Source: Candidatus Woesearchaeota archaeon | GTDB taxonomy: Archaea; Nanobdellota; Nanobdellia; Woesearchaeales; GW2011-AR9 | Direction of reading: 5' to 3' | NCBI GenBank assembly: GCA_018303285.1 | Contig: JAGVYL010000015.1 | Coordinates: 1-55,811 of the forward strand | Length of the DNA: 55,811 bases | Shown here: positions 6,741 through 6,917 of the stretch, one piece after another | Numbering within the stretch: the stretch's first letter is position 1 | How the letters are laid out: each line of letters starts with the position of its first letter | Translations under genes and position numbers: made by a program | The notes under the pieces: generated by a model | Databases searched by the model: none | What the model was told of the DNA's origin: nothing | Seen by the model: only the letters and a program-made list of their open reading frames with translations

Positions 6741-6917
6741 GCCCCTGTAGCATAGCCCGGTAATGTACCGCTCTCGTACAAGCTTTTTAAAAAAAAGCTT
6801 AAGCAAAAAAATGAGGCATAAAGCCTCACCCTTTTATTTAAAGAAGAGAGAAGCGGGGATCGGGGGTTCAAAAGCCCGCATCCTTGTGGTTGCAGCTTGA
6901 AAGTCCCTCCAGGGGCT
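6741..6917 (+). tRNA. tRNA-Thr(CGU) candidate with two introns (72 nt after position 37; ~31 nt in the T-loop)
   Basis: Manual fold. Acceptor GCCCCTG/CAGGGGC with discriminator T. D-arm GCAT-AGCCCGGTA-ATGT. Anticodon stem CCGCT (6768-6772)/AGCGG (6852-6856), loop CT-CGT-A + A. T-stem GGGGG (6862-6866)/CCCTC (6905-6909), with TTCAAA..T split by 6873/74-6903/04. Confidence 0.6.

Follow-up and report, generated by a model that had tools for sequence, protein, structure and literature searches.

A stretch of 55,811 nucleotides (nt) from the genome of a Candidatus Woesearchaeota archaeon, here called the window (contig C39 of an assembly of 0.99 Mb in 50 contigs, with 39% GC and 93.6% complete), very probably carries, at positions 6741-6917 of the forward strand, a real tRNA-Thr(CGU) gene of a DPANN, Woesearchaeota-type archaeon that is interrupted by two endonuclease-spliced introns. 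An earlier reading of the sequence alone had proposed one intron at the canonical site and a second in the T-loop, and both the calls made by ARAGORN on spliced forms and a comparison with orthologues bear this out. The gene comprises three exons, which give a 74-nt cloverleaf once both introns are removed. Its parts, including the type of bulge-helix-bulge (BHB) motif at each intron, are:

6741-6778 (+): exon 1, which aligns with 13 orthologues and holds the acceptor 5' strand, the D-arm, the anticodon stem 5' strand and loop nucleotides C32 U33 C34 G35 U36 A37. It reads acceptor GCCCCTG, TA, D stem GCAT, D loop AGCCCGGTA, D stem ATGT and A, followed by anticodon stem CCGCT and loop CTCGTA, the last base of which is A37 (6778).

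6779-6850 (+): intron 1, 72 nt, at the canonical site 37/38, with a relaxed (HBh'-like) BHB.

6851-6872 (+): exon 2, with A38, the anticodon stem 3' strand AGCGG, variable loop GGAUC, T stem GGGGG and U54-A59 (UUCAAA).

6873-6903 (+): intron 2, 31 nt, at the non-canonical T-loop site 59/60, with a near-canonical BHB.

6904-6917 (+): exon 3, with U60, the T stem 3' strand CCCUC, the acceptor 3' strand CAGGGGC and discriminator U73.

The spliced product has stems of 7, 4, 5 and 5 bp in which all 21 pairs are standard, a 7-nt anticodon loop (CUCGUAA) with U33 and a purine at 37, and a 7-nt T-loop (UUCAAAU). Tertiary positions are intact: U8, A14, G15:C48, G18 G19, U54 U55 C56, A58 and G53:C61, and the run U54-A58, like the 7-nt T-loop, arises only after removal of intron 2. 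The set G1-C72, C2-G71, U73, G35 and U36 – which we take to be the identity elements of archaeal threonyl-tRNA synthetase – is present, and is invariant across the 14 aligned sequences described below; its acceptor pairs and the discriminator (T6917) had been recognized from the sequence alone. CCA is not encoded in exon 3, the CT at the 3' end being invariant in the same alignment. Every tested spliced form is called tRNA-Thr(CGU) by ARAGORN, and if the T-loop insert alone is removed the program reports Thr(CGU) with a canonical 72-nt intron, i(39,72). Even in the unconstrained minimum free energy (MFE) fold of the complete 177 nt (-63.1 kcal/mol), the acceptor, D, anticodon and T stems all form unaided.

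Orthologues were sought in 113 other genomes of the family with a pattern that describes the first, 5' portion (one half) of the Thr(CGU) gene. There were 14 further matches, 13 of them full genes: four are intronless, eight contain one canonical intron (13-44 nt), and one (G073) contains two, a canonical intron of 21 nt and a T-loop intron of 35 nt. Alignment of the spliced gene with these orthologues (14 sequences, one of which was corrected by hand) gives a mean column identity of 83%, with invariant acceptor ends and U73. When read on the cloverleaf, 98.3% of stem cells are paired, as compared with 37-51% when the partners are slid, and 12 of the 21 stem pairs show changes on both sides. 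All five anticodon-stem pairs of the window gene depart, in each case with compensation, from the sequence most common among the orthologues. The T-loop UUCAAAU is the same in most orthologues, including two of the four that lack introns. Given this conservation of the exons and the covariation between paired positions, it is a conserved gene that excision of precisely the two inserts restores. A BLAST search with the 261-nt locus against 100 family genomes returned short exon or T-arm matches only, and it was from these that the first related T-loop introns came; pattern scans of metagenomes for close relatives with the same exons found none.

The gene escapes standard annotation, as had been anticipated. 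No genes were called by ARAGORN with default settings on the window, and Rfam at the gathering threshold gave no match there; at E<=10, the interval 6650-7000 yielded no tRNA, the matches being chance ones far under threshold (mir-553, mir-208 and others), and a search of the whole genome with RF00005 does not list the locus. Such failures are to be expected for a gene with two large inserts. With introns allowed, ARAGORN reports 27 tRNA genes in the genome, of which approximately 20 contain introns; the 27 include Thr(GGU) and Thr(UGU), and Thr(CGU) is absent from them. An intact Thr(CGU) gene elsewhere would have marked the window locus as a decayed copy, according to the sequence-only reading; neither a search for anticodon arms bearing CGU nor BLAST of the mature tRNA turned up a second tRNA with this anticodon in the assembly.

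Two further disrupted genes were seen in the course of these searches. The tRNA-Trp(CCA) gene at 21226-21337 (-) of the window contains an intron; it escapes both ARAGORN in default mode and Rfam at the gathering threshold on the window, and is recovered by ARAGORN with introns allowed and by the whole-genome RF00005 search (47.3 bits). A hidden tRNA-Glu(CUC) gene on another contig (C14:10536-10794, -) is missed by both ARAGORN and RF00005; it has a single canonical intron of about 184 nt, with all four pairs of the central helix, and an acceptor closed by G1-U72. About a dozen expected isoacceptors are still unfound in this genome (for example Asp, Asn, His, Lys UUU and Val GAC), and further disrupted tRNA genes are therefore likely. 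The tRNA totals given for such metagenome-assembled genomes (MAGs) understate the true set: Thr(CGU) and at least seven other disrupted genes escape default finders here. The non-canonical-intron routine of tRNAscan-SE 2.0 was trained on Crenarchaeota, Euryarchaeota and Thaumarchaeota.

The established rule for archaeal splice sites (summarised in PMC3239211) is a BHB with 3-nt bulges flanking a 4-bp central helix, each strand being cut after the second bulge nucleotide. The expectation that such a motif could be drawn at both junctions holds in near-canonical form for the T-loop intron; at intron 1 only a relaxed form can be drawn. For intron 2, helix h' is the 5-bp T stem (GGGGG/CCCTC at 6862-6866/6905-6909) and the central helix H is UUCA(6867-6870):UGAA(6898-6901), 4 bp, which lies within the opposed TTCAA (6867-6871) and TTGAA (6897-6901) already singled out from the sequence. 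The bulges are A6902 G6903 / U6904 on the 3' side and A6871 A6872 / A6873 on the 5' side (here and below the slash marks the cut). Helix h is interrupted, with G6874:C6896 and C6875:G6895 followed by G6878-A6880:U6891-C6893, and U6897 is unpaired and faces the 5' bulge. Intron 2 thus displays the full hBHBh' arrangement, in a register that lies +2.1 kcal/mol above the local MFE fold. We place the 3' cut at 6903/6904 because it is there that a 3-nt bulge adjoins the T stem, and the 5' cut at 6872/6873 because only there does the 7-nt loop TTCAAAT result; the T-loop insert, earlier bounded at 6873/74-6903/04, accordingly resolves to 6873-6903. A 58/59 register and other lengths were rejected, as they give either a 4-nt bulge by the T stem or a T-loop of a length other than 7 nt.

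Analysis of related genomes shows that the T-loop intron at 59/60 is commonplace in the lineage of this archaeon. Intron 2 fits a lineage signature, GTTCRAA..YGAAAG/TCC, and the corresponding pattern GTTCRAA-N14-44-YGAAAGTCC is found in 93 of 114 family genomes and in 108 of 201 sampled genomes of the phylum, with few matches to a reversed control. The pattern leaves positions R57 and Y(-6) free, and among 143 distinct introns these are A-T in 84, G-C in 39, G-T in 15 and A-C in 5: compatible, that is, in 138 of 143, with five A-C combinations against about 27 expected under independence (related genomes not being independent of one another). Immediately within the bulges, 50% of the 143 introns have an intronic helix of 3 bp or more, as against 16% of shuffles; where such an h helix exists (72 introns), one unpaired nucleotide faces the 5' bulge in 63 – the arrangement seen in intron 2.

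A scan of the genome itself gave seven tRNA genes with a 59/60 intron, Thr(CGU) included. The other six are:

C11:8160-8309 (+): tRNA-Ala(GGC).

C25:3127-3295 (-): tRNA-Arg(CCU).

C35:17332-17454 (-): probably tRNA-Gln(UUG).

C45:22000-22126 (+): tRNA-Ser(CGA).

C46:24618-24753 (-): tRNA-Lys(CUU).

C47:18623-18714 (+): tRNA-Gly(CCC).

The T-loop introns of these six are 20-76 nt long. Extra inserts are present in Arg CCU (a 63-nt intron), in Lys CUU (a 30-nt intron) and, in the D-loop, in the probable Gln UUG. All seven genes supply anticodons that are otherwise missing from the genome. Six of the seven introns have in common a stem of the form GCCAGCAA..TTGCGGC. In six of the seven T-arm precursors the BHB register coincides with the MFE fold or lies no more than about 2 kcal/mol above it (in the seventh, Arg CCU, the folding constraint did not take hold), and the unconstrained fold of the T-arm is the BHB, or nearly so, in four of the seven genes. 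C34 is present in five of the seven tRNAs.

The 72-nt insert after A37 (6779-6850), the other predicted intron, lies where it had been placed, and its exon-intron pairing is of a weaker kind. Its helix H consists of C32:G6848, U33:A6847 and C34:G6846, with a mismatch between G35 and A6845; the 3' bulge is A6849 G6850 / A6851, and the 5' site, U36 A37 / C6779, is single-stranded. This corresponds to the relaxed HBh' form, and the same pattern is evident in other canonical introns of this genome: H has four of four pairs in seven genes and three of four in Arg UCG, Phe and Lys, and helix h beside H is often missing. The interior of intron 1 folds into three local hairpins, of which that at 6780-6800 follows the 5' site and is not contiguous with the 3' strand of H. 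Among the Thr(CGU) orthologues, the canonical introns in three genera (G040, G059 and G054) share AAATC...GATTTCAGAC ends and differ in their middles; helix H in these introns has only two clear pairs. The idea of a C/D-box guide RNA within intron 1 was dropped, no RUGAUGA or CUGA boxes being visible in its sequence.

The surroundings of the gene contain the following features:

6707-6714 (+): TATA-like box TTTATAAT, centred about 31 nt 5' of G1; a putative promoter element.

6924-6927 (+): TTTT run, 7 nt past the gene; possibly a weak archaeal terminator.

6971-7684 (+): adjoining open reading frame (ORF), outside the tRNA; listed as 6884-7684 from a TTG inside the tRNA gene, with an in-frame ATG at 6971.

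The TATA-like box, which had been noted upstream of the gene, has counterparts: TTTAWA-type boxes lie at -30 to -34 in about half of 17 other tRNA genes inspected in this genome, and T-runs follow most of these genes. The downstream ORF does begin, as listed, inside the tRNA gene, a start that was suspected to be spurious, and ATG 6971 is more likely than TTG 6884 to be its true start; a Pfam search with the 237-aa product gave no match. The upstream neighbor, at 6008-6655 (+), has a weak match to Fic/DOC (E 4e-5).

Processing of such a precursor would depend on the splicing endonuclease EndA and the ligase RtcB. EndA is encoded by one gene, an ORF of 199 aa on contig C13 (L021:1474-2073, minus strand) that matches PF02778, PF01974 and TIGR00324; its best relative of solved structure is the N. 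equitans NEQ205 catalytic subunit (3IEY_A, E 4e-37), followed by the EndA proteins of M. kandleri and M. jannaschii, and its close relatives come from MAGs labelled mostly Woesearchaeota, Nanoarchaeota or Nanoarchaeia, with some other labels. A second subunit was found neither at E<=10 nor with phmmer --max over all ORFs, and the enzyme is presumably of the homotetramer type. Aligned with 1A79, the EndA of M. jannaschii, the protein has no obvious insertion. RtcB was found as two pieces, C22:12493-13212 (-) and C24:6-668 (-), each touching a contig end, which is probably an assembly break and not a split gene.

According to our model, transcription from the TATA-like box at about -31 would produce a precursor of approximately 180 nt, in which stretches close to the 3' ends of the introns would engage the exons: UGAA of intron 2 would pair with U54-A57, and GAG of intron 1 with C32-C34. 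Each of these exon-intron pairings would set a 3-nt bulge beside the T stem or the anticodon stem, respectively. The single EndA would then cut at 6778/6779, 6850/6851, 6872/6873 and 6903/6904, and RtcB would ligate the three exons into the 74-nt tRNA, with CCA added later. The product would be expected to serve in translation as Thr(CGU).

Several observations weigh against a functional, twice-interrupted gene. The strict hBHBh' form is absent at intron 1, where H has three of four pairs and no helix h closes the intron; moreover, its BHB register lies +4.5 kcal/mol above a slid register with a 1-nt bulge, made possible by a GAGAG repeat, that is the local MFE fold. In the same intron a terminator scan flags a T5 run together with a hairpin that precedes CCCTTTTATT; at such terminator-like features, transcription by the archaeal RNA polymerase might conceivably end prematurely. 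In the classical description, homotetrameric EndAs are strict enzymes, and only a single EndA subunit was found in this genome. Finally, with the assembly 93.6% complete, an intact Thr(CGU) copy could sit on missing DNA, and ACG could be read through wobble by Thr(UGU); essentiality of the gene is therefore not provable.

These points bear on the strongest of the alternatives, that the locus is a decaying Thr(CGU) pseudogene whose inserts are no longer removed, with ACG codons being read by Thr(UGU). Such decay would accommodate the lack of a strict BHB in intron 1 and its T-runs and terminator-like hairpin, and also the third pair of the intron 2 stem, a C x A mismatch relative to the GCCAGCAA..TTGCGGC consensus of the genome. 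However, a pseudogene sits poorly with a spliced product in which 21 of 21 stem pairs and the conserved tertiary positions are intact, with inserts placed exactly at sites that have the exon-intron pairing needed for cleavage, and with a promoter box at the usual distance; no other CGU copy was found in the assembly, and H of three pairs with no adjacent h is also found in the canonical introns of Arg UCG, Phe and Lys. We consider a pseudogene improbable and a functional tRNA-Thr(CGU) gene with two introns very probable.

A second alternative arises from the make-up of intron 1, which contains two hairpin-forming segments:

6780-6808 (+): sub-module a, a predicted 9-bp hairpin AAGCUUUUU/AAAAAGCUU (6780-6800) plus the linker AAGCAAAA.

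6812-6828 (+): sub-module b, a predicted hairpin UGAGGC-AUAAA-GCCUCA.

Both had been noticed from the sequence, the first as the palindrome AAGCTTTTTAAAAAAAAGCTT (6780-6800) and the second as the TGAGGC/GCCTCA hairpin (6812-6817/6823-6828), and both are where they were said to be. A targeted pattern search shows that sub-module a has just one other copy in the genome, at the beginning of the ~184-nt intron in the tRNA-Glu(CUC) gene on C14. The 15-mer G[AG]GGCATAAAGCC[CT]C occurs in exactly two copies in the genome, with similar flanks: one is at 6813-6827, and the other (C11:8249-8263) lies inside the T-loop intron of tRNA-Ala(GGC). BLAST of intron 1 against its own genome gave only short AT-rich chance matches. 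More widely, a hairpin-linker pattern, CTTTT-N-AAAAG-NTT-N-CAAAA, is found in 79 of 201 Nanoarchaeota genomes and reaches 39-65 copies in four genomes of one family; copies lie in tRNA introns (in both orientations), inside matches to RNase P RNA, and in 34-nt tandem arrays between genes. Arrays of this kind stand upstream of a conserved GACTGAGTTTTCTTGCTTACTGATTCATAAA.

It might thus be argued that the T-loop insert alone is a true EndA intron and that the 72-nt insert is a recent repeated hairpin element, poorly removed or removed by another route. The recurrence of both sub-modules in other introns, and the abundance of the hairpin-linker repeat in some Nanoarchaeota (up to 65 copies in a genome, tandem arrays included), would fit. 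Nonetheless, the position 37/38, the pairing of C32-C34 with GAG and the 3-nt bulge by the anticodon stem make up the normal archaeal arrangement; canonical introns occupy the same site in eight orthologues (13-44 nt) and in G073 (21 nt); the other canonical introns of this genome are of 53-63 nt, with one of about 184 nt; and an anticodon loop could form only once the insert is gone. We regard this alternative as highly improbable. That the cloverleaf arose by chance in AT-rich intergenic DNA, for which nothing speaks except that helices are in general easily drawn once one is free to take out two inserts, is in effect refuted by the match of the exons to 13 orthologues with invariant discriminator and acceptor ends, the covariation controls and the lineage-wide intron signature.

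Taking the two inserts as introns that EndA would remove, a further question concerns their origin. It is possible, though on balance doubtful, that they are not inherited relics and were instead copied from small hairpin modules, repeated and mobile among the RNA genes of Nanoarchaeota. The sequences suggest that, in such a case, intron 1 would be the hairpin and TATA-like-linker module joined with a GGCAUAAAGCC hairpin, and intron 2 a member of the genome-specific GCCAGCAA..TTGCGGC family; the linker of intron 1 resembles the promoter boxes of the tRNA genes of this genome. If true, tRNA introns would be gained when a mobile element, of DNA or of RNA, inserts into a gene, and a promoter-like linker could be an early step towards split tRNA genes. 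Within single genomes the 59/60 introns of different tRNA genes are often near-identical, and they differ between genomes (for example TATCC..AGGGAGACTACAAATCTTCCTGAAGATT in G045), while one type, ATAAGG..CCTTATCAAC.., is common to genomes of different families; genomes with near-identity within the genome or sharing across families are G045, G017, G101/G108/G088 and G169/G202. This pattern within genomes points to spread or homogenisation.

Multiple and non-canonical introns are known in archaeal tRNA genes, as the sequence-only reading stated; published cases come from ARMAN-2, from Thermoproteales and from the literature on DPANN archaea. Introns at 59/60 and tRNAs with several introns have thus been published already, and the Thr(CGU) gene adds one case. 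What it brings to the subject is twofold. Introns at 59/60 with a conserved ..YGAAAG/U end are spread across Nanoarchaeota, a lineage that apparently has the single-subunit EndA only. In addition, a precursor that combines a near-canonical with a relaxed BHB offers defined substrates for a direct test of how broad a range DPANN homotetramer-type EndAs accept.

A close parallel is ARMAN-2, likewise a DPANN archaeon, in which tRNA-Cys and tRNA-Pro have introns at exactly the T-loop position 59/60, and in which a 59/60 intron is cleaved in vitro (PMC3239211). A large share of its tRNA genes is disrupted, and the Pro gene has a strict hBHBh' motif. The Cys intron of ARMAN-2 is of 13 nt and of the hBH form (PMC3239211), whereas the T-loop intron described here has 31 nt, both bulges, and an extra unpaired nucleotide opposite the 5' bulge. 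The enzymes also differ: ARMAN-2 possesses a three-unit epsilon2 EndA with a loop of its own (PMC3239211), as against a single EndA of 199 aa here. With regard to the enzyme, a comparison is offered by Kaneta et al. 2018 (PMC5829648), according to whom several DPANN lineages, including a Woesearchaeota genome, have an EndA of one subunit alongside numerous disrupted tRNA genes, and gaps in a tRNA set are a sign of undetected disrupted genes. The alpha4-type EndAs of DPANN archaea in that study are tied to an 'L3' insert (PMC5829648), which the present protein, with no obvious insertion relative to 1A79, may or may not have.

Among Thermoproteales, up to three BHB introns, canonical and non-canonical, occur in one tRNA gene (Sugahara et al. 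2008, Fujishima et al. 2010; reviewed in PMC4033280 and PMC4090602). Two further features are seen here as well: similar introns across different tRNA species of one genome, and genes that standard finders miss. Those archaea are Crenarchaeota with an (alpha-beta)2 EndA carrying a Crenarchaea-specific loop, in contrast to the Nanoarchaeota (Woesearchaeales) and single-subunit EndA of the present case. The tRNA-Thr isoacceptors of Aeropyrum pernix provide a match in amino acid identity: according to Hirata et al. 2011 (PMC3241643), both standard and non-standard introns are removed from them in vivo. A. pernix is a crenarchaeon with an (alpha-beta)2 enzyme, unlike the single-subunit EndA of the archaeon described here.

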